A program made the translations under genes and the position numbers. Positions 23,601 through 51,584 of a stretch of DNA of 64,000 bases are shown piece after piece. The stretch comes from Neodothiora populina (Eukaryota): NCBI RefSeq assembly GCF_041146345.1, contig NW_027191415.1, positions 248,001 through 312,000 of the forward strand, in the 5' to 3' direction. Numbering within the stretch: the stretch's first letter is position 1; each line of letters begins with the position of its first letter. Below the pieces are notes generated by a model that saw nothing but the letters and a program-made list of their open reading frames with translations, ran no database searches and had not been told where the DNA came from.

Positions 23601-23997
23601 CATGCACCATTCCAGCAGCGGAGTGCTCAGGCATCTGGGTGGGAGGCGTGGGTGGTAGAGTAGCAATTTTGTGATTCAGACTAATAGGCATGTGAGCCTT
23701 GTTGCCATATCCCTCGTGTAGGCTCCCATCAGATGCGCTGTCATCTGCTGCATCATCGTCATTGACCTCGTCCTCGTCCTCGTCCTCGTCCTCTTCATCT
23801 GTGCCACCTCCTCTCTGGTGCGACGTGGTAATCGTCGTGACTGTAGACGATGATGTGAAGTCATTCATGACTGGGCGTATGGGATTTCGCTCTTCCTTTT
23901 GTTTGAAGGGTAGCGATTGATATGCCCTCATGAAGGATGAATTGTTGAATGACTTTTCCAGGAGGGCAAAGGCATCATCGTACTGCCTGTCTGGCAT
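20605..23997 (-). CDS. Large, mostly disordered Ser/Pro/Arg-rich hypothetical protein (~1130 aa)
   Basis: Single 3.4-kb ORF with first ATG at 23997. It has an acidic tract near 23760-23800, conserved-looking islands LHPFWRPRAFWDDL and GFLVGNTLGIDRHGTNNRRHY, and a charged C-terminal helix. Confidence 0.8.
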   Translation of the reverse strand: MPDRQYDDAFALLEKSFNNSSFMRAYQSLPFKQKEERNPIRPVMNDFTSSSTVTTITTSHQRGGGTDEEDEDEDEDEVNDDDAADDSASDGSLHEGYGNKAHMPISLNHKIATLPPTPPTQMPEHSAAGMVHVGPLPAQNSRLSTPVYPPCPLTPDLTPPSNRPEMLNVPRPPMPQFSSSRTESFVTAREDPSLCSTQSSQISLPLAENAADRNWLDASRSLRSESPRPPGSSSTCDEKSTGSSADDDTPTRRTSHETLRPRKSEDLSTPRKSLNGSGSTADVSPTRNVTVRKQRSKSLLESHAIDMQVRLNGEPLDQAPANLVKQGQTISREHDGQNYKTRGSLDSSSTSDKDEHTWHTAINDMLYKAIRDEKSKRLSGISQTSTTVEAVVIPGPRPKKRILRHAGKNLALRDDISSSRSSLESTVSRSHSHSLRHKKAKLPSRLEALDDTVRSVSNPEAKLPDKIQVIVIPGRCTSLNSASFLPPFSHDKTPLLTDQQHHLHHTRPSGHLSQNEYETANNTTSQNLSHRKQATTANTHAAPEPLMRGPSHRLRHASAPLSVDSYEHAARPAALSLPYGSKSSARTLETRDSLAPPSDRRSASLDNASTGGNVAGPLSDVAKDLCRPNLYDQMPISPRISIDQSHANARHLHASKTPGALSQVSDRTDAIDISEAQAVNLYPHGNDSLLLVQHPSRRHNAESLANSRLPSAIDEISTPTESDSSSAELVGPLLSIFPASTLRPITPLAHLESKHNTTSDSPLLNPRPAPMPPVVVIPPTPVPDLEAQANATIETERPERPGAPQRRGSLVQRARRYSESFMQPFLPLRITESRRSTSSQRPVSEHDRNHTLHPFWRPRAFWDDLESDDSELGDYESYLDPDPEHDRLPPGGDTSDVASLKRKQMGIKWPRKMSVRMPGFSGSGGFLVGNTLGIDRHGTNNRRHYIDLRYSLICSKSGDQKLTNRSARGRREGIDEDSSLAKQKRSHSTPATTFVLPFFASSSPQMPAYGLTSPIKGNTAKRSASPAAPAPHVPRERHSSKLKSKSSTESLSHRNGTLRKRPSQRSLRRQSRGGVMGYKIPGLGLQVQALSVREIQDRLENRRVEREETRREARRKELRGLISKPALIEH

Positions 23998-27272: not shown

Positions 27273-30200
27273 ATGTCTGGCCTGCCCCCTCCCCCTCCTC
27301 CGGGATGGGATGCGCCCCCTCCGCCGCCGCCGCCAGGCGCTGCACCACCGGGCTCATCTCTGGCCCCGCCACCCCCAGGCTACAGACCACAGGCCGACCC
27401 TCACAAGGCAAAGTTTGCCGAGAAGAAGAAGCAATGGCTACGGACACAGCGACAGCGATTTGGCGAGAAGAGACGTGGTGGGTTTGTCGAGACGCAAAAG
27501 GCCGACATGCCGCCCGAGCATCTACGGAAGATCGTCAAGGACATTGGAGATGTGTCGCAGAAGAAATTCAGCAGCGACAAGAGGAGTTATCTGGGCGCGC
27601 TCAAGTTCATGCCTCATGCTGTCCTGAAGCTGCTTGAGAACATGCCCATGCCGTGGGAGAGTGCGCGTGAGGTCAAGGTGCTGTACCACGTCAACGGTTG
27701 TCTGACTCTGGTCAACGAGATCCCTCGAGTCATCGAGCCCGTCTTCCACGCTCAATGGGCGACAATGTGGGTGTGCATGCGACGAGAGAAGAGCGACAGA
27801 AGACACTTCAAGCGCATGCGTTTCCCTCCCTTCGACGACGAGGAGCCGCCCCTCTCCTGGTCGGAGAACATCGAGGATGTCGAGCCCTTGGAGCCTATTC
27901 AGATGGAACTCGACGAGGACGAAGACGCTGCTGTATATGAGTGGTTCTACGAGCACAGGCCGCTGCTCGACACGCCGCACGTGAACGGCCCGAGTTACAA
28001 GGAGTGGAATCTGTCCCTGCCGCAGATGGCTGCGTTATACCGCTTGAGCAACCAGTTGCTGAGCGACCTGGTGGACAAGAATTATTTCCATCTTTTCGAT
28101 CTACCCAGCTTCTTCACCGCAAAAGCCTTGAACGTCGCCATCCCCGGAGGCCCGCGTTTTGAGCCTTTGTACAAGGATGTCGATCCCAACGACGAAGACT
28201 TTGGTGAATTCAACGCCATCGACCGCATCATTTTCCGATCTCCCATCAGGACAGAGTACCGTGTCGCCTTCCCTTTCCTTTACAATTCATTACCGAGAAG
28301 TGTCAAGATCTCTTGGTACTCATTTCCTCAGACCGTCTACACCAGAACAGAAGACCCGAGTCTCCCCGCCTTCTATTTCGACCCCATCATCAATCCCATC
28401 TCATCGCGCCAAGTCGCGCCGAAGAACCTGACTATCAGCCACGAGGACGAGATATTTGGAGTGGGCAACAACGAGGACGACGCGTTCACCCTTCCCGATG
28501 AGGTCGAGCCCTTCCTGGCTGATGAGGAGCTCTACAATGACGAGACCGCCTCCGCCATTGCCCTCTGGTGGGCCCCGTTCCCCTTTGACAGGCGCTCCGG
28601 CAAGATGGTGCGCGCCCAAGACGTACCACTGGTCAAGCAGTGGTACCTCGAGCACGTACCTGGAGGTCAACCCGTCAAGGTCAGGGTCTCTTACCAAAAG
28701 TTGCTCAAGACCTATGTGCTCAACGAGTTGCACAACCAGGGTGCCAAAGCTCAGAACAAGCAGAACCTGATGCGCACCCTCAAGCAGACCAAGTTTTTCC
28801 AACAGACCACCATCGACTGGGTCGAGGCCGGTCTGCAGGTCTGTCGACAGGGTTTCAATATGCTGAATCTTTTGATCCACCGCAAGAACCTGACCTATCT
28901 CCATCTGGATTACAACTTCAACTTGAAGCCCATCAAGACCCTGACGACCAAGGAGCGCAAGAAGTCACGATTCGGAAACGCTTTCCATCTTATGCGTGAA
29001 ATTCTCCGTTTGACCAAGCTCATCGTCGACGCTCAGGTCCAATATCGCCTTGGCAACATCGATGCCTTCCAACTTGCTGATGGTATCCTCTATGCTTTCA
29101 ACCACGTTGGACAGCTCACTGGAATGTACCGATACAAATACAAATTGATGCACCAGATCCGTACCTGCAAGGATCTGAAGCATTTGATCTATTACCGATT
29201 CAATTCGGGCCCTGTCGGTAAGGGTCCGGGCTGCGGTTTCTGGGCGCCCGCTTGGAGAGTCTGGCTTTTCTTCATGAGAGGTATCATCCCACTGCTGGAA
29301 CGCTGGCTTGGTAACCTCCTGTCGCGACAGTTCGAAGGTCGTCACAGCAAGGGCGTTGCAAAGACCGTCACCAAACAAAGAGTAGAATCGCATTTCGATC
29401 TCGAGCTGCGTGCCTCCGTCATGGCCGACCTGATGGACATGATGCCCGAGGGTGTCAAGCAGAACAAGGTCAATCTTGTACTGTCCCATTTGTCCGAGGC
29501 CTGGAGATGTTGGAAGAGTAACATCCCATGGAAGGTCCCTGGTCTTCCTGCCCCCATCGAGAACATCATCTTGCGATACGTCAAGAGCAAAGCCGACTGG
29601 TGGGTGTCTGTCGCCCACTACAACCGTGAGCGTATAAGAAGAGGCGCCACTGTCGACAAGACTGTCGCAAAGAAGAACTTGGGACGTCTCACACGTCTGT
29701 GGCTCAAGGCCGAACAGGAGCGTCAGCACAACTACATGAAGGACGGCCCGTATGTCTCCTCTGAGGAGGCTGTCGCCATCTACACAACTACTGTGCATTG
29801 GCTCGAGTCGAGGAAGTTTCAGCCGATCCCATTTCCCAGTGTTTCTTACAAGCACGATACCAAGATCCTGATCCTGGCTCTCGAGCGTCTAAGAGAAGCC
29901 TATTCTGTCAAGGGTCGTCTGAACCAGAGCCAACGTGAGGAACTGGCACTGATCGAGCAGGCCTATGACTCTCCCGGCACAACCTTGGCACGTATCAAGC
30001 GCTTCCTACTCACTCAACGTGCCTTCAAGGAGGTCGGCATCGACATGAACGACAACTATAGCACGATCAACCCCGTGTATGACATCGAGCCCATCGAGAA
30101 GATCACCGATGCCTACCTCGATCAATATCTTTGGTACCAGGCGGATCAAAGACACTTGTTCCCATCGTGGATCAAACCATCCGATTCCGAAGTGCCTCCT

Positions 30201-33200
30201 CTTCTCACATACAAGTGGGCGCAGGGTATCAACAACCTCGACAAAGTCTGGGAGACCGCCGACGGAGAATGCAATGTCATGATTGAAACTCAACTTTCAA
30301 AGGTGTATGAAAAGATCGATCTGACGCTCCTCAACCGCCTCCTTCGACTTATCATGGACCACAACTTGGCGGATTACATTTCGTCTAAGAACAACGTACA
30401 GCTCAATTACAAGGACATGAACCACACGAACAGCTATGGAATGATCCGTGGTCTGCAATTCTCAGCATTTGTCTTCCAATACTACGGCTTGGTTATTGAC
30501 TTGCTACTTCTTGGTCTGCAACGCGCAAGTGAACTTGCCGGCCCTCCAAACAGCCCCAATGACTTCCTGCAATTCAAGGACCGTGCCACCGAGACCAGAC
30601 ATCCCATTCGTCTTTACACTCGTTATATCGATAAGATCTGGGTCTTCTTCAGATTCAGTGCAGATGAGTCGCGCGACCTTATCCAGCGCTTCCTCACCGA
30701 ACAACCTGACCCCAACTTCGAGAACGTGATCGGATACAAGAACAAGAAGTGCTGGCCGAGGGATTCGCGCATGCGACTTATGCGCCACGACGTGAACCTT
30801 GGCCGAGCTGTGTTCTGGGACATGAAGAACCGTCTGCCTAGATCCGTCACCACCATCGAGTGGGACGACACTTTTGCAAGTGTCTACAGCAGAGACAACC
30901 CTAACCTGCTCTTCTCCATGTCTGGTTTCGAAGTCCGCATCTTGCCTAAGATCCGCAACCTGAATGAGGAGTTCCCCACCAAGGACAGTGTCTGGTCACT
31001 TGTGGAGAACTCGACCAAGGAGAGGACTGCACATGCTTTCTTGCAGGTCACCGAAGACGACATTGCCAAGTTCAACAACCGCATTCGCCAGATCCTCATG
31101 TCATCTGGTAGTACTACTTTCACAAAGATTGCCAACAAGTGGAACACGGCTCTCATTGCATTGTTCACCTACTATCGTGAAGCTGCTGTGAGCACTGTCA
31201 ACCTGCTCGATACCATCGTCAAGTGTGAGACCAAGATTCAGACCAGAGTCAAGATTGGCCTCAACTCCAAGATGCCTAGTCGTTTCCCACCTGCTGTGTT
31301 CTACACGCCGAAAGAGCTTGGTGGTCTTGGTATGATCTCTGGTTCTCACATTCTCATCCCCACCAGTGACAAGAGATGGTCCAAGCAGACTGATACCGGT
31401 GTCACGCATTACCGAGCTGGTATGTCTCACGATGAGGAGACGTTAATCCCCAACATCTTCCGTTATATTATTCCTTGGGAAGCCGAGTTCATTGACTCTC
31501 AACGCGTCTGGACCGAATACTCACAGAAACGCCTCGAGGCCAACCAACAGAACCGTCGCTTGACGCTCGAGGATCTTGAGGACAGTTGGGACCGCGGTCT
31601 GCCCCGTATCAACACCTTGTTCCAAAAGGACCGCAGCACGCTCAGTTTCGACAAGGGCTTCCGTACGAGAACAGAGTTCAAGATCTACCAGCACATGAAG
31701 AGCAACCCGTTCTGGTGGACTAGCCAGCGCCACGACGGCAAACTGTGGAATCTCAATGCCTACAGAACCGATGTCATCCAGGCACTTGGTGGTGTCGAAA
31801 CAATTCTTGAACATACACTCTTCAAGGCCACTGCTTTCCCATCTTGGGAAGGACTCTTCTGGGAGAAGGCCTGTCTTGCGAAAGGAACGCAATTACTGCG
31901 TCACGACGGCACAAAGATCGCGGTCGAAGATGTGAAGGAGGGTGACCTGCTGCTTGGTCCCGATGGCGGACCTCGCCGCGCCTTCAACATCGTCAGCGGC
32001 AAAGATCGCCTTTACCGCATCAAGACGGGCGCTGGCGTGGAGGATCTCGTTGTAACAGCCAACCATATCCTTGTCTTCCACCGAGGCATTGCAGGATCAC
32101 CCGAGACCGTCGAGATTACTGCTGCTGAATACGCAGCTGTGAGCGAGAAGGAACGAGGCGAGTACCGGCTCTTCATGTCGCCCAACGACGGTGCCTTCGA
32201 TGCTCAATCCCATAGTTTTGCTGTCCAGGAGATTGCTCTCGAAGCTGAGCCCACTGGATGGGCTGGTTTCCGCGTCGATGAAGATCAATTGTATCTCCGT
32301 CATGACCGCGTTGTTCTGCACAACTCTGGTTTCGAAGAATCGATGAAGTTCAAAAAGCTCACCAACGCTCAGAGATCTGGTCTCAACCAGATCCCTAACC
32401 GTCGTTTCACCCTCTGGTGGTCACCAACCATTAACAGAGCGAACGTGTACGTTGGTTTCCAAGTCCAACTTGATCTGACTGGTATTTTCCTCCACGGTAA
32501 GATTCCCACGCTCAAGATCTCGCTCATTCAGATCTTCCGTGCCCATTTGTGGCAGAAGATTCACGAGAGTGTTGTGATGGATCTGTGCCAAGTCTTTGAT
32601 CAAGAGCTTGAGGCGCTTGGTATCGAGACAGTGCAAAAGGAGACTATCCATCCGAGAAAATCGTACAAGATGAACTCGTCTTGTGCCGATATTCTCCTCT
32701 TTGCCAGTCACAAGTGGAGTGTGAGCACACCCTCGCTTCTGTACGACACCAAGGACAACATGGGCCAGACTACGACAAACAAGTTCTGGGTCGATGTCCA
32801 GCTTCGATATGGTGACTACGATTCTCACGACATCGAGCGCTACGTTCGTGCCAAATACCTTGACTACACCTCTGACAGCATGAGTATCTACCCGTCCGCT
32901 ACTGGTCTCATGATTGGTATTGATCTGGCCTACAACCTTTACTCTGCATACGGACAGTACTTCCCTGGTCTGAAGCAGCTCGTGCAGCAAGCTATGGCCA
33001 AGATCATGAAGGCAAACCCTGCACTTTACGTTCTCCGTGAGCGCATTAGAAAGGGTCTCCAGCTCTACGCTTCTGAAAGCAACCAAGAGTTCTTGAACTC
33101 GCAGAACTACTCGGAGCTGTTCAGCAACCAGATCCAACTCTTCATTGACGACACTAACGTGTACCGTGTGACGATTCACAAGACCTTTGAGGGTAACTTG

Positions 33201-34820
33201 ACAACCAAGCCCATCAACGGTGCCATTTTCATCTTCAACCCCAGAACAGGCCAGCTTTTCCTGAAGATCATCCACACAAGTGTATGGGCCGGTCAGAAGC
33301 GTCTCGGTCAATTGGCGAAGTGGAAGACTGCCGAGGAAGTTGCTGCTCTCATCCGTTCGCTGCCTGTAGAGGAACAGCCCAAGCAACTGATTGTCACCAG
33401 AAAGGGTCTTCTGGACCCTCTCGAAGTGCATCTGCTTGACTTCCCCAACATTTCCATTCGTGCTTCCGAGTTGCAACTTCCCTTCCAAGCTGCAATGAAG
33501 GTCGAGAAGCTTGGTGACATGATTCTTCGTGCTACCGAGCCGCAGATGGTTTTGTTTAACCTGTACGACGAATGGCTAAAGTCTATCTCGTCATACACTG
33601 CTTTCTCGCGTCTGATATTGATATTGCGTGCTCTACACGTGAACCAAGACAAGACGAAGCTGTTGCTACGTCCCGACAAGACCGTCATCACTCAGGAGCA
33701 CCACATCTGGCCAACGCTATCAGATGATGATTGGATCAAGGTTGAAACGCAATTACGTGATCTGATCCTTAATGATTATGGAAAGAAGAACAACGTCAAC
33801 GTATCGTCTCTGACGCAGTCGGAAGTACGGGACATCATCTTGGGTATGGAGATCTCTGCACCGTCGATGCAAAGACAACAAGCCGCCGAGATTGAGAAGC
33901 AACAGCAAGAGCAAGCTCAGCTTACTGCTGTCACAACGAAGACCCAAAACGCCCTCGGTGAGGACATTGTTGTCACAACCACTTCTCAATTTGAGCAGCA
34001 GACATTCGCCTCGAAGACAGAATGGCGAACCCGGGCAATCGCAACATCAAACCTGCGGACTCGTTCAAACAACATCTACATCTCGAGCGAGGACATCCGC
34101 GACGACGAGGCCCACTACACGTACATCATGCCCAAGAACATCCTCAAGCGCTTCATCACCATCGCCGACCTCCGCGTGCAAGTCGCCGGCTACATCTACG
34201 GCTCCTCGCCAGCAGACGCCAAGCAAGTCAAAGAGATCAAATGTATCGTCATGGTCCCCCAAGTTGGCAACACGCGAGACATCCAACTACCGCGCAACCT
34301 GCCCGAGAACGACATCCTCAACGGCCTCGAGCCCCTAGGCATAATCCACACCTCAGCAGGCAACGAAACAAACTACATGACACCACAAGACGTGACCCAG
34401 CACGCGCGCCTCATGGACGCACACAAGTCATGGGACAATAAAACGGTGACCATGACAGTATCCTTCACGCCAGGCTCCGTCTCTCTCTCCGCCTGGTCCC
34501 TGACCCCCGACGGCTACAAATGGGGCGTCGAGAACAAAGACCTGTCATCGGACAACCCGGCCGGCTTCTCGTCGCTTCTCGGTGATAAATGCCAACTCCT
34601 GCTCTCCGACAAGATCCGCGGCTTCTTCCTAGTGCCAGACGACGAGCGCTGGAACTGGAGTTTCATGGGCTCGGGCTTTGGAGATAGAGAAAAGGGTCGC
34701 GTGTACGTCGACGTCGGCGTTCCCAAGCGGTTCTACGATGATGTGCATCGCCCCGTGCATTTCCAGAACTTTGCAGAGCTCGAGGATGTCTGGGTTGACC
34801 GGTCTGATAACTTGGAGTAG
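27273..34820 (+). CDS. PRP8: Pre-mRNA splicing factor Prp8 (U5 snRNP), intronless, 2515-aa precursor including an intein
   Basis: Pro-rich N-terminus, [94 protein letters not shown] RNase H-like region, C-terminal JAB/MPN region. Confidence 0.99.
31872..32324 (+). mobile_element. PRP8 mini-intein (151 aa, no homing endonuclease)
   Basis: In-frame insertion between LFWEKA and SGFEE. It starts with Cys (CLAKGT, block A), has block B VVTANHIL (TxxH), block F WAGFRVD, ends VLHN, and is followed by Ser+1. Confidence 0.97.
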
Positions 34821-35327: not shown

Positions 35328-38300
35328 TCATACAGCCAACCCCAAAACCTCGCGCCTCCGCCAGCGATAGAACCGATCGAGAAAATGCCTGCGCTGCGCC
35401 TGCGTCCACGAGCCCTCGACGAGCAGCGCAAACTCCTGGACGCCGTCTTGGCCATGATACCCGGCCCAGGCGGCCATGGAGCAGAACTGGCGTTTGCGGA
35501 CTTGTTCGGGGGGTTGCCATTGCCATTTCACTGCACTGCTGTCATTTCCTCCCGGTGAGGGTTGGTCTTGTGCCGCGGGGACTGGGAGGGGGCCTAAGGG
35601 GTCGCGACGAGGAAGATGGGGCTCAAGAAGCTGGGAGGAGGACTTCTCGAAGACGCTCTTGTTGCTCAGATCGATGTCGTTGCCTGTGCGTTCGGCGCGC
35701 TTGGACAGCTTGGTCTCCATCTTCGAGGAGCCGATGACTTCGCTGTTTTCGTGCGTGTATTCTACTCCTGCGCCGGCTAGGATGGCTTGCACGGCGTCAA
35801 TGTTGCGGTCTGGTGTTGTCGTCGTTTTTTTCTTTTTCTTTTGGAGGGTCTCTTTGGTTTTGCTTGGCGTGCTCAGGTCTCCTTCGGCGATTACGGCGGC
35901 TAGTTGCGACATTACTGCGTCTTCTCCTGCGTGGACGCTGTTTTCGTCGCGGAGAGACGAGGCGAGGCCGTTTGGGTAGTCGTCATCGTCGTCGTCGTCG
36001 TTGGCATAGTCCTGCGTGCTATCTAGTCCCACGACAGAGACGCCGGCTTTGGATTCTGCTATGTTGGTTTTGTTGACAATGTCTCTCAGTACGACATTGT
36101 CGCCTTGGTAGGAAAAGAGATTTACAAGGCCGAAGATCTCGCCCTTTTTCTCCTTTTGGTCCTGGACGCCTTTGAAGTAGCGTCTCTCCAGTGATGCCGT
36201 GTATGCGATGTTCGCCTGTTGTTGCTTGTAGATCTGCCTCGCGTATACAATCTCTTCTACTGTGCCTGCAGACACGAGGCGAAAGACCTCGACATCGCGG
36301 GTTTGTCCTATACGGTAGGCGCGGTCTTGTGCTTGTAGATCCCACGAAGGGTTCCAGTTGGGGTCGAATATGACAACCTTGTTTGCTGAGGTAATGTTGA
36401 GACCTACACCTCCTGCCTTGGTGGAGATGAGGAAAACAAATTGAGTAGATTCGGTATTGAATTCTTCGACAACTTTTGACCGATCTTCATACTTCATGCT
36501 GCCGTCTAGATACGAGACATTATACGATGTCGCCGACTTGAAAAGTATTGCAAGCATCTTGAGCAGGCGCACGCTATGGCTGAATACAAGTACTTTATCG
36601 CCGTTCTGATGCCAGAAACGCAACAATTTCTTCAAGACACGCCACTTGCCGCAGAAGCTTTGGTTGGCATAGTTGACGATGCTGTCTCTTGTACGGTACA
36701 AATCTTGCCACTTATCGGGCAAGGCTATCTGCAGAATCTCCGCTGCCTGTTCTTGCTTGTCTTTCGGGTCTGAGCTGCTGGGTATGAGCATCGCGAGATG
36801 GTTGGATAGACGTTGGAGGACCATGATTGTCGGGAAAACGTTAGCCTGCCATGGCCCATGACCAGGTATGGACTTGTAACAACACCATCCACGCTTCTTC
36901 CCAGAATCGCAGTCACACAAGTCTGCAGATCTGCGAATATAGTCAACAAGCTCGCTATCAACCAGATTCTCGTAAGCCTCAGCCTGCTCGTCTGTAAGAG
37001 GGCAGAAGACTACCCGGTCTGACTTCCTAGGAAGCTGGTCCGCAATGAGCGTCTTTAATCTACGCAGAAAGAAGTTTGGCAGAAGATTTTTGACTAGTTT
37101 CTCCGCCGTCTTACGCGCCTTTGCCAGCTGGGCGACGGTGGCATCGTGGGACTGGCCGAGCTTGAGTGGATCACTGATACTCGCTTTCCATGCCGATAGA
37201 GGTCCAAATTTACCAGGATTGGTCCAATTCAGTAACGTCCATAGTTCATCGTATTTGTTTTGCACCACAGTACCACTAAGTCCAATCCTGCACAAAGCAT
37301 TGACTTCGTTCATCGCCTTTGTTACCTCAGAATTGCGCTCTTTGACTTGATGACATTCATCGGCAATCACACAATCCCATTCTACGAGATTGATGTCTCC
37401 TTTGTTCATACGGTAGGTCGTGTAAGTGGTGATCATGATCTCCAGTCTGCCGGACTTGGCAGCATTCAGAGAGGCCTCTCTCACAGCTGCAGGTCCATGA
37501 TACTTGTCAACATGCCACCATCCCCAGCGGCGGAGTTCCTGCTGCCAGTTGTCCATTAAGCCTCCAGGACAGACGATCAGTACTTTTGGATACCATTGCT
37601 GAGCGCGTCGCATCTTGCGCATCCTCTTTTTGTCTCTAGAATCGCCAGTTTTGCCAAACGCGGCTGTCAGAAATGCAATGACTTGTATGGTCTTGCCGAG
37701 ACCCATGTCATCGCCCAAAAGCCCGCCTTTCTGCCAGACAAACATTTCGTGCAAGAACTCGGCACCTTTGACTTGGTAGTCACGAAGCCATTGAGCAATC
37801 GGTGCCGGTATGATTCCGGCAGAGTATGATAACTCGACATCCTGATATTGTTTCGGTGGTTGTATACCAGTGAACACAGGCTTCTCAGGAAGACTCTCAA
37901 GATGCTCATTGTCAGAGAAGTCTACCTCCTCATAGTCCGGTGGCAAACTTAGACCTGCTTCACCTAATTTCTCACGCCGAAGTTCCCATGCACTACGTCT
38001 TTCTTTGAGGAATTGTGGCAATGCCGTTTCGGGTGCTTCATCATCCGAGTCGGTGCCGTAGGTGTCTCCCTTGACGAGCTTCGCAGGTCTACGGTCCTCA
38101 GGTTTGTTCAGCGTCTTTGGCTTTCGGCCTACGATTGACGATTCATTTGCAGCAGCTCTAGCTTTTCGCGTACGAGCAGCTGCTTTCTTACGTTGGTCGG
38201 TCCGACGGTGTTTGAACTTTTGGTAGACATCTTTTCCACCCTCATCGTCTTCTGAGAAGCCAACTCGATCTCCCTCAGGTGTATGGTCGCGTCGACGACG

Positions 38301-38498
38301 TTTCGCCGGAGGCCCTACTTCTTTATCTGAGCTTTGAGTCTCAGGTTGGTCGTCTAGCACTTCTGGTAGATCTACTTCTTTTGCGGAAGTCCTGACTATA
38401 TCGAGATCACTTTCTTCATCACTATCTGTGCCATCCATCGGTGGAACGCTGGTTGTTGGTGGGGATTTGCCATCACCTCTGGGTTCTATATGAGCCAT
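35328..38498 (-). CDS. SNF2-family ATPase, ERCC6L2/RAD26L type
   Basis: LRDYQ, GDDMGLGKT, DECH, LSGTVVQN, LRRLK, STKAGGVGLNITSANKVVIFDPNWNPSWDLQAQDRAYRIGQ, and a C-terminal HENSEVIGSSK (VIGSSK motif). Confidence 0.92.
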   Translation of the reverse strand: MAHIEPRGDGKSPPTTSVPPMDGTDSDEESDLDIVRTSAKEVDLPEVLDDQPETQSSDKEVGPPAKRRRRDHTPEGDRVGFSEDDEGGKDVYQKFKHRRTDQRKKAAARTRKARAAANESSIVGRKPKTLNKPEDRRPAKLVKGDTYGTDSDDEAPETALPQFLKERRSAWELRREKLGEAGLSLPPDYEEVDFSDNEHLESLPEKPVFTGIQPPKQYQDVELSYSAGIIPAPIAQWLRDYQVKGAEFLHEMFVWQKGGLLGDDMGLGKTIQVIAFLTAAFGKTGDSRDKKRMRKMRRAQQWYPKVLIVCPGGLMDNWQQELRRWGWWHVDKYHGPAAVREASLNAAKSGRLEIMITTYTTYRMNKGDINLVEWDCVIADECHQVKERNSEVTKAMNEVNALCRIGLSGTVVQNKYDELWTLLNWTNPGKFGPLSAWKASISDPLKLGQSHDATVAQLAKARKTAEKLVKNLLPNFFLRRLKTLIADQLPRKSDRVVFCPLTDEQAEAYENLVDSELVDYIRRSADLCDCDSGKKRGWCCYKSIPGHGPWQANVFPTIMVLQRLSNHLAMLIPSSSDPKDKQEQAAEILQIALPDKWQDLYRTRDSIVNYANQSFCGKWRVLKKLLRFWHQNGDKVLVFSHSVRLLKMLAILFKSATSYNVSYLDGSMKYEDRSKVVEEFNTESTQFVFLISTKAGGVGLNITSANKVVIFDPNWNPSWDLQAQDRAYRIGQTRDVEVFRLVSAGTVEEIVYARQIYKQQQANIAYTASLERRYFKGVQDQKEKKGEIFGLVNLFSYQGDNVVLRDIVNKTNIAESKAGVSVVGLDSTQDYANDDDDDDDYPNGLASSLRDENSVHAGEDAVMSQLAAVIAEGDLSTPSKTKETLQKKKKKTTTTPDRNIDAVQAILAGAGVEYTHENSEVIGSSKMETKLSKRAERTGNDIDLSNKSVFEKSSSQLLEPHLPRRDPLGPLPVPAAQDQPSPGGNDSSAVKWQWQPPEQVRKRQFCSMAAWAGYHGQDGVQEFALLVEGSWTQAQRRHFLDRFYRWRRREVLGLAV

Positions 38499-41537: not shown

Positions 41538-44064
41538 TGTATATTCTGTCGTATCATAGCTTATGGACACAATAGCCTTCAATGAGAGTTCGCCACGGTC
41601 TCATAACGAAGTGCATCTCGGGCATCAGGTATGCTGGAGAGCCTCGTTCGGAAGCCACGTTCGGTAAGGGTAGAGTAGGCTTGGTTCAGGGCCAATAAAT
41701 GCCCGGCTGCATGAACCATTCTGTCGACCATCAATACCACAGCACATCTCGACCGAGGCATGAACTACGCGTTCGGCTTATGGACCGGCGTCCCAGCGTA
41801 CTTCATCATAAATGTGCTGCGTACTATAACGTCTTCATCGCACGCGAAGGGAGGAGAGCAAACCGTCCCCACGTGCCGTGTCTCTCATCGCGCAACGGGT
41901 TATCGATAATGCCAACGGTCAGGCTGCAAACTGTGTGTGCTCCTCGATAATGCAGTGAGTTCATCTATTACTCTGTCAGCTATATTGTGTTTAGACTTGC
42001 CTTATGATAGCTTCCTTCATGACAAGCAGCAGATACGAGATAGGCGGGCTTATAACGTCATACATGAATCGCTATTTTATATCGCATGGCTGTTGTAAAT
42101 GCTCAAATCATACGACATCGTCTGTTAAGCAAAAAGGACACAATGTATACATAGCGTAGAGATGGACAGGTCTGAGTACAGACTCGATACCGACCACCTA
42201 GAACATTCATAGCAATCATATGTGCTCGCTTGCCTATCCCATTGCTATGTCTATGTAAGTACCTTCCATGTCGAGTTTGTGAATGGCGACGTGCCATGAA
42301 GCTAAGTATCGTGATTGTTCAATCCCACGTGGCGAACGAGCTCTTGTTGTTTCGTTCGAGGCCTGGTCATAGGCTGGCTCTTCGTGCGCCGTTCAGCTGC
42401 ACCCTTGACCATATAGAGGACGTGGTATATTGTAGATAGTGGTGCGCTCTACCTGGATCAGGATGTCTCAGGCTCTGCATCATCCACGAGTTACTAGTAG
42501 AAAATTGTCTCGGGACAGACCTACGTTGAGCCAAACGCCAGACTGATGGGGCCCCCTGCAGTCCAGCGAGAAGGACCGCCCCCGTTTCCCGTTAGTGAAG
42601 TCCTTTGTCGCCTCCCGGAGTTGTTCCATCCAGGCGAAGGTATATCCGCGTCCTGTCACTGCCCATAAGGCTGCATACATATAGGTGTGTGTATGTGTGT
42701 GTGTTTAATGCAGAAAACAGTGGCAGGAGTTGAAATCTGCGTCCAGTCACACTGTCTTGTACATCCCCTTCTGGAGCTCTCAGGTCACCAAAGCTGTCCT
42801 TGACCCACCTCCTATCTTTTATCTCTTTACTTGCCTTGACACAGCATCCAAATCTTATCTATCGAATCACCGTGAGCGCAGGCGACCGTTTCACACATCA
42901 TGAACCGAATTATTCCAGCGCAGTGGGTCTGCTGGCTAAGTTCCCCAAGTCTCACCTCCCCAACCGCCAGTAGACCAGACACGGCAATGAGCAACACTTG
43001 CCAAAAACAAGTAGGTGCAGTCGAGAGCTGACCTCTGACCATAATTCTAGCTGTGATTCGACGAAGAAGAACCATCGGGACTTTGCCCCATTCTTTTGAA
43101 TACGAATGCAATCCCTCCATAAGGCAGGTGCATGATCCTTGGTTGACTATATTGCACCCAGTCAATGAATAAGACATATAGGTAGATCATCTGCAGTGAC
43201 ATTCATTCTTCTCCGGGACTTCGGCATCTCGGTATACATGCTACTCTACTTCGTCCATCACACCCCACATAGTCCCACTTACCGAGGCACAAGTCTCATT
43301 GCCGTCACGCCGCTCACGGTAGATATGGGTGTTTTCATGGGAGCCGTACTTCTCCATTTCTGAATTCCCCCGGCTAATGCTCCTGCAAGAACGAGCCGTG
43401 AACGTTGAGTGGCCCAGCTTCACGGAATCCGGCAGTGGTTCCTCTCAGACGAACGACGGCAGTACCATAGATGCCCCCAATAATCAATGGACGACACCTT
43501 CGACGCTGGGAGTCCGTCGGTGTTAGACCCCGACATTCCGCGCTACAGGCCTGTTGGCCACCAGATCTGGGGCTGGACCTGCCACGAATTTATCTTGTCT
43601 TTGTCCAGCATTCATATAGCGCGTGATTACTGCTTTGGAAGCAGGCTGAAACATAGATAATTATAGAGGAACATTTCTTCTGGGAGACTTGCTATATAAT
43701 CGTATTGCTTCGTCAGCGACGTAGATGTCACATTGACGAAGTATTGTTGTTGCTTACCTTCGAGAAGGTTGTGAGTGTTTCCACTGAGAACCATTGGAGT
43801 GATTTCGAGTTTTTCCCGATGTGATGCTGGCATGTCACTTGATAGGATTGCGAGAATTCGAGGGCGACCCTGTCTTTGTCGGAACGTTTGCCAGTACCTA
43901 TTGAAGCGTTTTGACACAGCCTTATATCAGGCCCATAGGCCGCTGAGATTATTTCACTACCGTTCGAAGTGGCATAAACAGAGGGAAGCTGTCCCAAGTG
44001 CTTCTTCTGAGATGAATTGATGGAAAGAACCGGCAGTAGCTATCTAAACTATGGTAGCACGTGC

Positions 44065-47000
44065 TCACACCGGAGCTTCATCCATGTCATGGTCTTCGTG
44101 TTCATCGTTATCATAGTCATCATCATCATTCTCATCAGACTTCGGTCCGTTCCCATCCCTTGCGTCCTCATCACCTGCCCCGCGCACCTCAAGCACTTTG
44201 ATAGCTTCGGCGGCCGCCTTGACTTCAGCTTCATCAGGGTGCCTGCATCCTCCAACCTTGACTACCTCCTTGTCCCCAATCCTGACCGTGCATTCAAAGA
44301 TTCTTTCATCTGTGGCGTCGGGAATTGTCGCCTTCTTCAGATCGTAGTGTACTCTCTCCTTGTCGGCTAAGATACCAAGTCTCTCCTTTGGATGACGAAC
44401 TTCGGGATGTTCGTTGAGGAATCGTCGCATCAGCTTCATGAGTCCAATATGTTCCATGAAGTCAGCGCACGCTACGGCAGAGCCATGGGTGTCGATGTAG
44501 ATTGCTCCAAGCACAGACTCGATCATATCAGAGAAGAATTTCGGCGGGTGAAGCTCGTAGAGTAGCGACCATGGATACTCTTTTCCTTCCCCAAGCTCCT
44601 TGAGTAGATGTAGACGTAGATCTTTGTGCTTCGACAGAGCAGCGCTACGTTGCGCAGACACGGCCGAGTCACAACGGAGGAAATCCGCCAGACAATATGA
44701 GTGCCAGGAAGGTGCGATCTCGAAGTGGGTAGTGCTATTTGCGCTTCTGACCACATCGTTTCTCTCTTGCGCAACAGTAAGCTCCATGCACAGAAAGCCC
44801 AGAAGGTGTGCATTCACGACCGATTGTTTGAGCTGATGCATTTCGTGGTTCTTGCGTGGTGGCGTGTAACGAAAAAGCTCTGGCACGATGATCTGGTCCA
44901 GTACAGCATCGCCTAGGAACTCAAGCCTTTCGTAGCAGAGGGTTGAGCTGTTCTTTGTCGACGCATGTGTTGTCGCTTCAAGGAGCAATAGTGGGGTCGC
45001 GAAGTGATAATCAACTATCTCTTCCACAAGCTCCGAGTTTGGCAAGTCTCCTCTTGGGCCGGCATTGAAGAGCGCTCCGTGAGCCTCATCAGGTGTGGTC
45101 CATATCTCATCCGGTAGGAATATTCGGATGCACTCCAGTGCTCCAGCGATGCCCTTTTCATGATATGATGCCCCTATCAGTGCCTCTACAACGTCTGCGA
45201 GGGTCTTGGTAGAACGAGGCACCTTCTCCTCTGTTGTCATTGTACAGTCCGATATATAGGGTGGTTGCCACTTATGGGCAGTGAACATGGTAGTTGTGAT
45301 GAATCTGTCCACTCCGGTCCTCATAGCTGCCTTCGCCAGAGAAGCATTTCTGTTGGTACGGCCTTTATCAGAAGTCAAAAAGCTCTCTGGCCAGAATGGG
45401 TGCTGGGCCATTAGTTGAACATGAGTACAAAACTTTAGTACCGAGTCTCCAAGAAATTCTAGACGCTCGTAGTTACGTTCGGCATTCGCTGATGACGAAG
45501 TGGTTGATTCCATGAGTAAATCCAGGTTGGTGATAGAGACAGGTCGTAAGATAGTTTCTTGAAGTTCTCTCGCTATCAAAGTATTTTCCACATGGTGTAA
45601 GATACTCGGGATACATGCTGCAGCAAAAGCATAGCGTGACGGTAGAACATCCATGGTACAATCATCGAGCGCCAACTCGACGGCAGCAGCGCTCTCATTG
45701 GAGGACTGTACATATGGTCGACGTAAAAAGCTCCGACTTTTGGGGAACTTTCTTGCGTACACAATGGGGTTCAGAGAGCTGTCTGAAGCCAGGACCATTC
45801 GATCAAATATAAAGGCTCTGCCAATTTGTCCCTTGACCCTCAGAAGTCCGAAGTCTTTTTCAGAGACTGTGTGAGGGAGATCCAATAACGACTTCGAGGC
45901 ATTCGCTTTCACCTGGCTTGCGTCATAGCCATAAGGTTGGAACAGCGCAGCGAAGTCACTGCGGCTGTAATCAATGCGACCTGATTGGTAAATGCTCGCG
46001 AGCAAGGTCAGTGTTTCTCTCCTAGCAGTGTTCCTCTGTGCCGGTCCTTCCATCTGGTCAGGTTCGCCAGGCAGTATAGTAGCAGCGCCATGACGATTCC
46101 CACTCCAAAACAGGCGGAGTTGAGGAATATCCCTACACTCCAATGGTAAATGCATCAAAAGCTCTCCAAACGTCTCCCCTGCGATATCGATCTGGACACT
46201 GCTACTTGACCACTTTTGTTGATCATATACGTGCAACGACCATGGATTGAGCCTCGGCAGGACCATAACCATCGATGGCTGTGACGTGGTCTCGCCAGGA
46301 ATATCCTCATACCTCGTGCGCAGGGGTAGTAAGTTGTCATTGACCAGGCCTGCTTTATGGAGCGCAATGTAGGCCACGAATGCCGCGTCTGCCATGGCAC
46401 CACGTTCAGTTCTAAAAGGTCGTGAGCTCCTTGTTCTCCTGAGATCTTGATGGACCGCCGCAGGCAATTCTACGTCGGAAACCACCATTTTAGTTGAGGC
46501 GTCTTCCCGACAGGAAAATACAGGCCTTAGATCACAGTGGCTAGCGGTCAGTAACGTTGCGCAGAAGTGATACAAGTGTGACTTTGCATTTTGGCTTGTA
46601 AGTACTGCGCTGCGAATCTAGTCAGTGTGATGCGGAGGCGAAGCGTATGACAAACTTGCCCTGTGGAAGGAATTGTATAGGACTCAGAATCGAAATCGGT
46701 TTGTCCTTCCATCTCATACGCAAGCTGTGCGTTGCGGAGATCACTTGTATACGCAGCTTTCATCCTCTCCTCTAAATCTTGCCATTTGGCTGGATCGGCT
46801 TTTCTATCACTGTCGTCAAGCAGTACGATGTATCTTGAGTCTTGTTTCCTTGCTCTACCTCGACGTTGAACGAAGGAGACCAGGTTCATCGGCGGATCAA
46901 AACATATCACTGTCTGACACGAGGAAACGTCGATTCCTTCCTCAAGCACACTTGTCGCAACAATGAGATTCTTCTTGCCAGACTGGAAGAGTTCCAGATC

Positions 47001-48674
47001 TTGTTGCTGGTCTGTGATCTCAACGACATCGCCAATGTTTTGTGAATATCTGGCTGAGGATGCGCTACCGACGTACGTCCCTATGTTGAACGAGGTAGCT
47101 GTCAGCGTTTGAGTCGAGATTACATGGGCTAATGCTGCGACTGTGGAGCGTTGCTCAGCAAATATGATGCCCGTGAAGGATGGGCCAGCTTCACGATGCA
47201 AGATATCCAATAAAAGTTGGGTCTTCGGAGTTAGATTGGTGTCTGGTATGCAAGGATCCAAGTAGGCCTGCGAGTTGATGCGATCCAGGACGGTCGCGAG
47301 GTGATGCTTTTCCTTCTCCGCAAGATCAGGCATCCAGTGGTTATCAGCATGGCTCATAGCTCGATGCATGCGGTCCAAGCACGTATCGAAATACCATTTC
47401 AGTGCAGCAGATCCGATATTCTGTAAGATGACATTCATCCGAATCCACAACGATTTCAGTTGTTTATAGCAGTATGTCTTGCGGCTCATTCGGATGTCCG
47501 CTATCTTAGCCATCGCAGATGCCTCAATACTTGATTTGAGAGCTTGAACGTAGGGGTCATTCTCGATATCATACTCCCTGAGAGCCTGCCGATAGCAGAC
47601 ATAAAGCGGGGATTGTGACCCATCGTACTCGGGTGTAGAGCAATAGAAGTGCTTCTGCAATTCAGGAATGTGTACGTACTGCATCAGTTCAGTTCTACAA
47701 CGTTTCGGGGTGCACGCGTGGCTGTCAAGGTTCCTTTCAAGTGTCCTGACACCAGTATAGTCAGCTTAGCATCAGCATTGAGTCTCGATCATCATACTCT
47801 AGCCCACCGGATTTAGCATTGACAACGGGGCTGGCACTCAAGCCCAGAATGTGCGGGACGGCTTGCGATCTGCTTTTCGCTGGATAGTAAAAGTTTTGCA
47901 TTATCAAGTTCGCCGGGTGTTCCTGCTTGCAGTGGTGGGCTTTCTCAAGTCAGACAAGGACATTTCAGGTAAATGGTATGACTACCTTCGTCGAAAACAC
48001 ACAGTGCTAATCGAGATATTGGCACAAAGCCATGAGTAAGAGCATCAAGAAGGACCGCATAAGTCGATATGACGATTCGAACATTGGCGAGGGTAGCGTC
48101 CCATAGACTCTGTTCAGTCCATAGATCATATTCGTCTTCTCCACTCAGCATGCGTATCTGATACTCCGGTAAATTCGTCCGGAAGGACTTGCTATGTTGC
48201 AGGCACAAGGCCACTGTTGTCAATTAGCGCTCATTGCGATATGTATGAGTATGGAAGACGTTCCTGTAGGTGCCATGAACCACGCGAGCTAAGAAGTTAT
48301 CAGTCACATCTCCTTAATGGATCAAAGTATAGGGACACCTCACCTTGTCGTTGTCACAGGATTCGAGTTCCGCTCTGATGCGAGCCATTGCACTATTTTG
48401 GGTCAACTTCCGTGTAGGCTTTCAGATTTTCGGAACCATATATTACAGAGGACCAATCTGATGCAATGCACACTTACATCTGCGTCTTCCCCGCCCCTGT
48501 ATCAAGGACGACGATGGTATTATGTCTCAAGCTTTCTTCCAGCATCTCGTCCTGGTAAGATCTCAGCCGGAGCTGCCCACCGTGAGCAGCTTGTTCTATA
48601 TCTGCCGTAACCAAGCCAGGTTGTCCAGTATCCATTTCCAAAGAACCATGAGGACTGAAGCTGCTTGCATCCAT
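44065..48674 (-). CDS. DCL2: Dicer-like protein 2; introns 48477-48393, 48343-48289, 48263-48214 (GA-AG), 47985-47940, 47797-47746, 46659-46610 (GC-AG)
   Basis: [50 protein letters not shown], dimerisation domain HLYHFC, two RNase III signatures ([20 protein letters not shown] and [20 protein letters not shown]), and a C-terminal dsRBD. No PAZ domain recognised, consistent with DCL2. Confidence 0.9.
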
Positions 48675-49117
48675 GTTTTTGAGCTGAGTCTGCAAGGATG
48701 TGACAAGCTGAGAGTGTTCAAATGCTGGCTGACGTACTTAGAGACGTGTTTGAACAGCGAATTATGCCCAAGTTTCATGCACAATGTCAGCGGGGTCGAA
48801 CGTAAGGCTGCATAGCACTGATTTGAGTATCAGCGATATGTGATTGTGAGCACCTACGGCATATGACAAGTTCAACAAAGCTATTGTACTTATCTCATCA
48901 CTTCTATACTTGAAGGATCATGATATTCAAGGTCGAAGAGAGTTGGAACATAGACTCTTATAGAATCTACAACAAAATTATTGCTACCAAAATGTTATGA
49001 AACAACGACATTACTTCCACAAAGATAAAGTCGTTACTCGAGCTGGTCCAAGCGTCAATATAGTCGTCAATCATGAATAACTAGATCATGGCAAGTTGTT
49101 CTTCCACCAAATATTTC

Positions 49118-50309
49118 TTACTCGCGCTTGCCGAATGCCTTGTCAAAGCCGGTCAAACAGAACCTGTGAGGGGTTAGCGATGCTCGAAAGGGATGTTGGA
49201 TTGAGATGTAAATACCTGAAGCGGACATCGTTCTTGGCGAGTCTCTCCAACGCTGTCTTAAGACCTTCCTCGCTGATATCGATGGTCTCGACCCAACTCT
49301 TGATGTTTTGCTTGCTGGCAAGTTCGAACATGGCAAGCATCTCAGGGCGGTTACCAATGTGTGATGCACCCAGGGCAGCACCGTTAGGGGCGAATTGCTG
49401 TGCTGACATCTGAGGCATAGGGTTGTCGCCAAATCCAACAATGTGGAACTTACCCCAGACCTTGATGATGCTGAGGTAGTCGTCCATGTTGAACTTGTCC
49501 ATTGCGTCGGCTGTGTTGATCACGAAGTCGAAAGTGAACTTGTGAGGTTCATTCCAGCCCTTCTCGTTGGTGGAGATGAAACCGTCGACGCCCATCTTCT
49601 CGGCGTCGGCCTTCTTTGAGGGGCTGTGGGAAATGGCCCACACCTCAGCGCCCATAGCCTTTGCCCACAACAGAGCAAAGTGACCAAGTCCACCAATACC
49701 AATGATACCGACCTTCTTGCCAGGACCAGCTCCAAGTCTCGAAAGAGGCGAGTAGACTGTGAGACCAGCACAAAGCATGGGGGCTGCGATGGATGTCTCA
49801 ATGTTGTCAGGAATCTTAAATGTGAAGTATTCGTGGGCTCTGATGTGCGACGCATAACCACCCTGAGAGAGTGTTCCGTCGGGGTAAGGTGCGCCGTAGG
49901 TGTCGATAGCGTTAGGGCAGTAGTTCTCCTGGTCCTGCTTGCAGTTGATACAATCCAAGTCGGCACCAATCTGAGCACCAACACCAACTCTGTCGCCAAC
50001 CTTGATGGTCTTGACAGCCTTGCCAACCTTCACTGCACGGCCAACAACTTCGTGACCGACGCAGAGAGGTAGGGGAACATCGCCCCAACCACCAGTGATG
50101 GTGTGCAAGTCAGAAGCGCAGACACCACAAGCATCGATGGCAATATCGATATCTCTGTCCTCGAATGGCTTAAGTTTGAACTGTTTAGATTGTCAATACT
50201 CGCGGCTGCACAAAATTAGATCACTCAGACTGACCTCGCCCTTCTTGAATGTCGACCACTTCTTGGTGTCGTGGATCATGAATCCCTCTGCAGTCTCCGG
50301 GTAAACCAT
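49118..50309 (-). CDS. NADP-dependent zinc alcohol dehydrogenase (ADH6/7-like); introns 50234-50181, 49215-49164
   Basis: CGVCASDLH, GHEVVG, AAPMLCAGLTVYSPL, GIGGLGH, spliced C-terminus DVRFRFCL..GKRE*. Confidence 0.94.
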
Positions 50310-51584
50310 CTTGATGAAATTTGAATGAAAATGATAGAGAGTGAAGAAAGTAAGCGTGTAATGTCTGACGGAAAAATGTAGTGAGATCTACATATCTTTA
50401 TATAACGTATGGGCCATGATAAACTTCGATCTTACCTAGCTAGGATGGGCACAGCGATAGCGGGGGGATTTGCTGACATCAGTGGGTCTTGCTACCATTA
50501 GAGTCAATAGGCTATAGTACCACTGCATGCTTTCATACAAGGATCGCATTCGACCCACACGGAAAAATATCCCATTGCTCACGTCGGTGCTTGTCAAGGA
50601 CATATCATGTTCGATGCGCTCAAGACGTTGGATTATACCAAGCACTCATACTTTCAAGTCACCTTGCTCATGCTGCATGCAATTGAGAGGCCATCACTCT
50701 CATACATTTTGTCGGCATCTGTAAACATGAACCGTCACGCCCGTTAAGACTGCGGGAGCGTCTCATAATGACGTGCGAGCAACAAAGAACATCCCACCAA
50801 TGAGATGCGTCAGATATGAGGCTCTTCCGATCTTAACGCCGGACAGGCACTGGTCCCAGCAGGTATCATGGTCATCTATCTATCTAGCCTCCCCGAACCT
50901 TAAGACCATCATGATGCGACGATTACTTTACCACGGCGTTGCTTCTGTGACACAACTAAAATGGGGACGAGCTATGATCAGAGTGCAAGGTAAAAACACA
51001 AATACCTCAATTGTGGAATCTGGACGGGTAAGGTGTGGTTACGTCTTCATGCTGTCACAATGGTTTCGAGGGAGCTCCCCCCGCACAATACGAACAAATG
51101 GTGCAAACATCCCCCCCATGTGCATTATCAGACACAGAACGACGAACAAATACAAGTACCTTAACATATTGAACCCGGTGTTGCACTATATTTGTGTTGA
51201 TTGAGATACAAAAGTCGTAGAGGTTCGTTGTGACTGCATGAACGACGGGGCTTAGGTCCTATTCACCTTCATTAGACATGACAATTCATGGATTCTGAAG
51301 AAGGAAGCTCTTTAGTGTGCCCAATTAGGGATCCCGGGCGTTCACAAGACCTGAATGATCAAAGGGTAAACCCGACGATTCAAGCAACATGTAGCATGCG
51401 GGGTTCACTGTGACAGCCTAGAAGGCTACTTTTATGTATACAGAGGTGGGGCTCGGTGAAGTTATAGCTGTGATCGACAGCTTCATCTGTGTCTCTTCAT
51501 CTATGAACATCATCGCACAGAAGACTTGTCGCATCTTGATAAGGCCAGTGCCAATTGTGGGACCACTATCCTCTATCTGTCAAT

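Follow-up and report, generated by a model that had tools for sequence, protein, structure and literature searches.

The window, by which we mean the whole stretch of 64,000 nucleotides analysed, carried a gene for a Dicer-like protein 2 (DCL2) on the minus strand. Its seven exons formed a single open frame of 1423 aa once a third intron with GA-AG ends was removed. The exons, the two introns with non-GT donors, the signals of intron 3 and one intron beyond the stop codon were located as follows.

48478..48674, minus strand: exon 1, with the ATG and helicase motif I (TGAGKT)
48344..48392, minus strand: exon 2, 49 nt
48264..48288, minus strand: exon 3, a micro-exon of 25 nt (also 25 nt in the related locus L003), which encodes LAWFMAPT plus a G, the first half of helicase motif Ia, and ends in CCTACAG
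48258..48266, minus strand: donor context of intron 3, CAG/GAACGT, matching CAG/GTAAGT at 7 of 9 letters with mismatches at +2 and +4
48214..48263, minus strand: intron 3, 50 nt, phase 1, ends GA...AG (GAACGT...GCTAAT...ACAG), probably a lineage-specific gain
48223..48228, minus strand: GCTAAT, resembling a branch site; the putative branch A is at 48224, and the final G of the intron follows 10 nt later
48220..48222, minus strand: in-frame TGA reached when intron 3 is retained, giving a product of 104 aa
47986..48213, minus strand: exon 4, 228 nt, containing M112, the start of the annotated model P0121
47798..47939, minus strand: exon 5, 142 nt, containing M180, the start of the annotated model P0001
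46660..47745, minus strand: exon 6, helicase C
46610..46659, minus strand: intron 6, GC-AG; both public models treat it as an intron, and one contig of the assembly X3 skips it (depth 2, with 27 letters on the shorter flank)
44065..46609, minus strand: exon 7, with the Dicer dimerisation domain, two RNase III domains, a weak dsRBD and the stop codon
43692..43757, minus strand: GT-AG intron with a spliced joint in X3, some 300 nt beyond the stop codon of DCL2; its probable place is the 3' UTR, if it belongs to the DCL2 transcript

Directly upstream of DCL2, a zinc alcohol dehydrogenase gene (49118-50309, minus strand) was present, with two introns spliced in X3. Other genes of the window included a SNF2-family helicase with ERCC6L2-like C-terminal domains (35328-38438, minus strand) and an ORF of 1130 aa without a Pfam match (20605-23997, minus strand).

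The DCL2 model had the DExD/H helicase motifs I, Ia, II, III, V and VI and both RNase III signatures with their acidic residues. The gene outside intron 3 was as intact as the sequence-only reading had described it. Dicer domains were matched in a Pfam search, and exon 7 was 100% identical to the Neodothiora populina protein AAFC00_006178 at NCBI. The protein was orthologous to named DCL2 proteins in a tree of DCL2-type rows only (no DCL1 outgroup), and its closest named matches included Dicer-like protein 2. Domain order and motifs resembled those of the DCL2 of C. parasitica as far as PMC11194562 describes them. Dicing and an antiviral role of the protein in this species would follow by analogy with C. 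parasitica.

Both public models, P0121 (1312 aa, from M112) and P0001 (1244 aa, from M180), were exact suffixes of the seven-exon model and were missing motifs I and Ia. M112 was the first in-frame ATG past intron 3. It was not conserved, with V, T, L and L at that position in four orthologues. Transcripts with retained introns would give the starts of both public models; rejection of GA by the annotation pipeline is another explanation, at least for the start at M112. Intron 4 (47940-47985, minus strand) had the weak donor GTAGTC, and P0001 began at the first ATG beyond it, as if this intron were sometimes retained. In order, the six donors of the coding introns were GTAAGT, GTGAGG, GAACGT, GTAGTC, GTATGA and GCAAGT, so that two of the six (introns 3 and 6) were non-GT; the GC-AG intron 6 had not been mentioned in the sequence-only reading.

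GT is the near-universal start of introns. Excision of 48263-48214 restored WFMAPTVAL (motif Ia) together with the open frame. The sequence-only reading had proposed this GA-AG intron behind a 25-nt micro-exon, and its letters and coordinates agreed with ours. Its statements on the alternatives were also borne out. Four slides of the junction along the ACAG repeat gave an identical mRNA with the intron ends GG..CA, AG..AC, CA..AA and AC..CA, none of them canonical, and retention led to a stop at 48222 after 104 aa. Among 115 GT/GC-AG pairs, 27 kept the frame, none retained the VAL half of motif Ia and the least damaging in-frame pair cost 6 residues. The nearby GTCTTC gave a frameshift with the acceptor at 48214. 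Joined to the acceptor at 48192, it replaced VALCLQHS by GT, as the same reading had foreseen when it spoke of a frameshift or loss of the motif. Use of this second pair (donor at 48259, 68 nt, GT-AG) instead of the GA-AG junction would keep the frame and yield a protein that lacks 6 residues just past motif Ia. We regard this as improbable, given that GTCTTC is a poor donor, that the acceptor beside the branch site would be bypassed, that the deleted residues are kept in orthologues and that the exon lengths of 25 and 228 nt common with L003 would be broken.

Outside +2, the donor context of intron 3 was U2-like, with exonic AG, +3 A and +5 G; the C at +4 was unlike the GC donors seen. GCTAAT, which resembles the branch consensus and presumably serves as the branch site, was located near a YAG acceptor. 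Protein sequences cannot reveal the donor, because +2 falls on the wobble position of a Gly codon when the intron is read through. A search for longer proteins covering exon 4 returned 14 distant ones; a spliced form of this species was not among them. Two further ideas were set aside. An origin of the intron by an ACAG direct repeat was discounted, the 4-nt overlap being largely forced by the exonic CAG and the acceptor. A-to-I editing would make the GA resemble a GG donor, which by reasoning is still non-canonical.

The letter at 48262 was compared with the X1 contig (10,079 nt, mean word depth 38.9), a separate assembly that is possibly of the window's own source run and not a second isolate; such contigs drop rare variants. 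Over 6967 nt (43500-50466), no differing letters and no gaps were found, and the site had no homopolymer longer than 2. A base-call error, which had been listed as one explanation of the GA, is therefore unlikely. An error in base calling or assembly at 48262 would have the general rarity of GA in its favour, as GT is thousands of times commoner and a single DNA source covers the site. With the same letter in X1, this explanation is scarcely credible. The X3 assembly, of the same sample as X1 and marked 'DNA?', contained four intron joints, including that of the GC-AG intron 6. This shows that transcription covers the 3' part of DCL2 and that the GC-AG intron there is removed. Coverage of DCL2 in X3 ended at about 47009 and was zero at 47010-48881, while X2 consisted of short scattered pieces, none over intron 3; neither assembly bears on the intron 3 junction.

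The signal pattern by itself was not above chance. The strict pattern (exon-AG/GA-A-x-GT with branch site and acceptor) occurred once in the window compared to an expectation of 0.55, and it was present in 47% of 60 Markov controls. Frame restoration and the orthologous intron in L003, not this pattern, thus support the status as an intron. The donor of intron 3 was good and not exceptional. Of 17 GT donors in the window, 13 of them supplied by a crude predictor and 4 by DCL2, one had 8 matches to the consensus, six had 7 and ten had fewer. With +1 and +2 left out, 5 of the 17 scored as high as GAACGT. GAACGT is one step from GTACGT, which accounted for 2 of 18 window donors, and two steps from GCAAGT. 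One of these 18 donors was GC, so that no excess of GC donors showed in this set. All GC donors seen (window intron 6, L003, L015, L021, L024 and L026) had A at +4 versus C in intron 3. Across the DCL2 loci read, GC donors made up 4 of 49, with L030 in addition. They recurred in 5' introns of DCL2, namely in intron 2 of L015 and L021 and in intron 4 of L024, L026 and L030; these occurrences are not independent and come from DCL2 genes alone.

A metagenome scan with the exon-4 alignment identified 38 loci. Of these, 34 were inspected, representing about 26 distinct loci because of eight near-duplicate pairs; L034 (no upstream DNA) and L036-L038 (weak 38% matches) were left out. In 33 of the 34, the coding sequence ran through PT-V without an intron, including four Aureobasidium-like loci. 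The best match, L003 (64%), was the exception. It carried a 54-nt intron at 1892-1945 in the same site and phase, with the donor CAG/GCAAGT, and exons 2-5 had equal lengths in the window and L003 (49, 25, 228 and 142 nt). Three loci were found in prokaryote genomes, one of which (L039) was a fungal-like contig without intron 3. Viral contigs gave 75 pattern matches and no relatives. Some loci showed peculiarities of their own. L039 (NYXK01000109.1), filed in a Deltaproteobacteria MAG, is an intron-containing fungal DCL2 and likely a contamination; a comparison of 150 nt showed no difference from L024. The DCL2 copy at L030 1240-1620 had several stops near motif Ia and looks like a decayed or RIP-hit kin of L024 and L026. 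Compared with the near-identical L028, L027 has a one-base gap near position 800 within the codons for motif Ia, possibly an assembly error.

In a midpoint-rooted tree of 28 rows, in which 12 of the loci were used, the window and L003 were sisters (98/94) within a clade with Aureobasidium and Dothideomycetes sp. NU459 (100/99). Their branch lengths were 0.58 (window) and 0.54 (L003), with a path of 1.12 between them. The simplest reading of the aligned loci is a single old gain of intron 3 at an exonic CAG, in an ancestor shared with L003 and specific to this clade. The sequence-only reading had set a GT donor in relatives against a genuine GA intron. GC, not GT, was found in the sole carrier relative, L003 (1 of 1). 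The GC of the sister is unlikely to be an unrelated chance event because GC donors are rare, with 0.77% of the introns in 842 genes of F. graminearum (reported in PMC3577648), 1.85% in Ganoderma (reported in PMC11590231) and the share among DCL2 donors given above. The pair of carriers suggests that the site may long have been without T at +2, a view which draws on one distant relative.

The exons upstream of intron 3 were the best conserved part examined. In residues 36-91 (exons 1-3), 46 of 56 were identical to L003, with a pN of 0.11 and a saturated pS of 0.84. The pN values against L003 were 0.20 for exons 4-5 and 0.32 for exon 6. Private changes in exons 1-3 numbered 4 of 56 in the window and 1, 6, 1 and 1 in four other loci. 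No second lesion was found in 1423 codons. The N-terminal exons thus have not decayed, which excludes an old null and is compatible with a fresh one. A recent splice-damaging allele, listed as a fresh splice-null in the sequence-only reading, in which GA is new in this isolate or young clone, intron 3 is mostly retained and either little DCL2 or a downstream-start form without motifs I and Ia is made, is accordingly a tentative alternative that we consider possible and less probable than not. It would leave the remaining gene intact, as observed, and, with its C at +4, the donor could have arisen from a GT donor in a single step. The public models begin past intron 3. A precedent exists in AvrPm8 of wheat powdery mildew, where a natural GT-to-GA change is reported to largely abolish splicing (PMC9909948). 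Such a null could persist, as loss of dcl2 in C. parasitica is described to shift the virus-free transcriptome little (PMC11194562). Against a damaging allele, the GC donor in the sister points to a site tolerant at +2, no long branch was seen in the tree, a second lesion was lacking, and SYMRK in which this change had been engineered into a GC version was functional according to PMC10668435.

Regulation at this junction was also considered, as the sequence-only reading had suggested that a genuine GA-AG intron might throttle or conditionally gate the antiviral Dicer. In that scenario, a Dothideales clade keeps a non-GT donor in the motif Ia intron as a splicing brake, which virus, dsRNA or stress releases; the retained message would give a 104-aa stub or a helicase-truncated form similar to Dicer-O. 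The donor was non-GT in both carriers of intron 3 (GA in the window, GC in L003), retention met a stop in both, and two of the six coding introns of the gene were non-GT. In mouse oocytes, the N-terminally truncated isoform Dicer-O is described as naturally occurring and active (PMC6563508). Nevertheless, we consider such a brake doubtful, with only a slight chance of being correct. The intron was missing from 33 of 34 loci, a length of 50 nt gives little room for elements, and M112, from which a truncated form would start, was not conserved. No conserved cis element or structure was found at intron 3 by folding, in Rfam or across the 34 loci; the region folded no better than shuffles (z +0.68) and had no Rfam match. 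For dcl2 of C. parasitica, PMC11194562 describes induction at the level of transcription, and splicing is not mentioned in the available part of that source. Hence the genuine GA-AG intron of the sequence-only reading is retained as the favoured view, since the sole relative with the intron has GC, and the throttling or gating part is not, in the absence of structure or an Rfam match.

Taken together, intron 3 is a real intron with a real and rare donor that is most likely tolerated. We think it probable, with modest confidence, that it is a genuine U2-type GA-AG intron, spliced sufficiently to provide full-length DCL2 and without dedicated regulation. Splicing is perhaps less efficient than that of a GT intron. 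A long-standing GC donor would already have worked without a U1 pair at +2. Pairing with U1 would be provided by the exonic CAG, +1 G, +3 A, +5 G and +6 T, aided by the close branch site and acceptor. The further change from GC to GA would have cost little at U1 recognition, because a GC donor already lacks the pair at +2. Some cost would be expected at exon ligation because yeast U2A reporters behave in this way, the second step being reported as impaired (PMC4836653). Unspliced copies would terminate at the stop after 104 aa, and gene predictors that disallow GA would let public models begin downstream. Several observations count against a tolerated intron, namely that no spliced read or contig was found at the junction, the C at +4, the two steps that separate GAACGT from GCAAGT, the precedent of AvrPm8, the yeast U2A reporters, the starts of the public models and a GC ancestry taken from one distant relative.

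Tolerance of the GA could also lie in the spliceosome, and the PRP8 gene was located in the same window (27273-34820, plus strand). Its ORF of 2515 aa is free of introns and includes a mini-intein of 151 aa, matched by Hint, at residues 1534-1684, where many fungal homologues also have an insert. Compared with 117 homologues, Prp8 deviated from the 85% consensus at 34 positions, one of them in domain IV (E to D, common to 7) and four in the variable loop before it. No positive sign of a spliceosome variant tolerant at +2 came from this consensus comparison of the window's PRP8 with 117 homologues.

Introns with GA-AG ends form a rare but recognised class of U2-type introns, of which intron 3 of DCL2 is probably a further case. 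The closest parallel in history is intron 12 of SYMRK in Trema orientalis, for which a GC-to-GA change, about 95% splicing, complementation of a mutant and presence in 28 Borneo plants are reported (PMC10668435). In both genes, GA stands where relatives carry GC, the gene is otherwise intact and the allele looks like a pseudogene at first. According to that report, splicing and function are established for SYMRK, whereas for DCL2 the GC is found in one distant relative, the intron itself is a putative clade-specific gain and the case is known from DNA. Among fungi, F. graminearum is reported to have one GA-AG case in 2604 introns (FGSG_10550, 52 nt; supplement S12 of PMC3577648), and Ganoderma 35 GA-AG sites (0.038%; PMC11590231). 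These fungal introns, as described, share short length, GA...AG ends and oversight by gene prediction with intron 3. They differ in being backed by transcript data, while intron 3 is backed by DNA, and the host gene here is a Dicer. AG/GA-A is described as the context of RNA-supported GA donors in Oikopleura and Eurytemora (PMC7072748), and GA-AG ends occur among newly gained introns of Oikopleura (cited in PMC4202315). The context and the tie to a gained intron agree with DCL2; GA forms a genome-wide class there, with 3.2% of supported sites as reported, compared to one site here. For human, FGFR and ITPR1 are given as GA-AG cases (PMC4176328). AvrPm8 resembles DCL2 as an ascomycete gene with a GA donor whose retention leads to an early stop. 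It differs in that the change was recent, from GT and under selection for loss; the available part of that report gives no GC history. Compared with other fungal DCL2 genes, the one analysed here differs in an intron absent from all inspected loci except one, and its antiviral role is assigned by analogy. In the literature searched, nothing was found on GA-AG splicing, intron retention or non-canonical splicing of fungal dicer-like or dcl2 genes; supplements may list further fungal GA-AG genes.

Because motifs I and Ia are missing from the public models, a reader of these might wrongly conclude that the Dicer of this species is truncated. The seven-exon model corrects this if the junction is spliced. 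If unspliced, the isolate would be a natural DCL2-poor strain, which is relevant to its mycovirus load. A regulated junction, if true, would represent control of fungal RNAi at the level of splicing. If the tolerated GA-AG intron is true, DCL2 would provide a fungal instance of the route from GC to GA that SYMRK had suggested, and the gain of the intron concerned can be placed on the tree.
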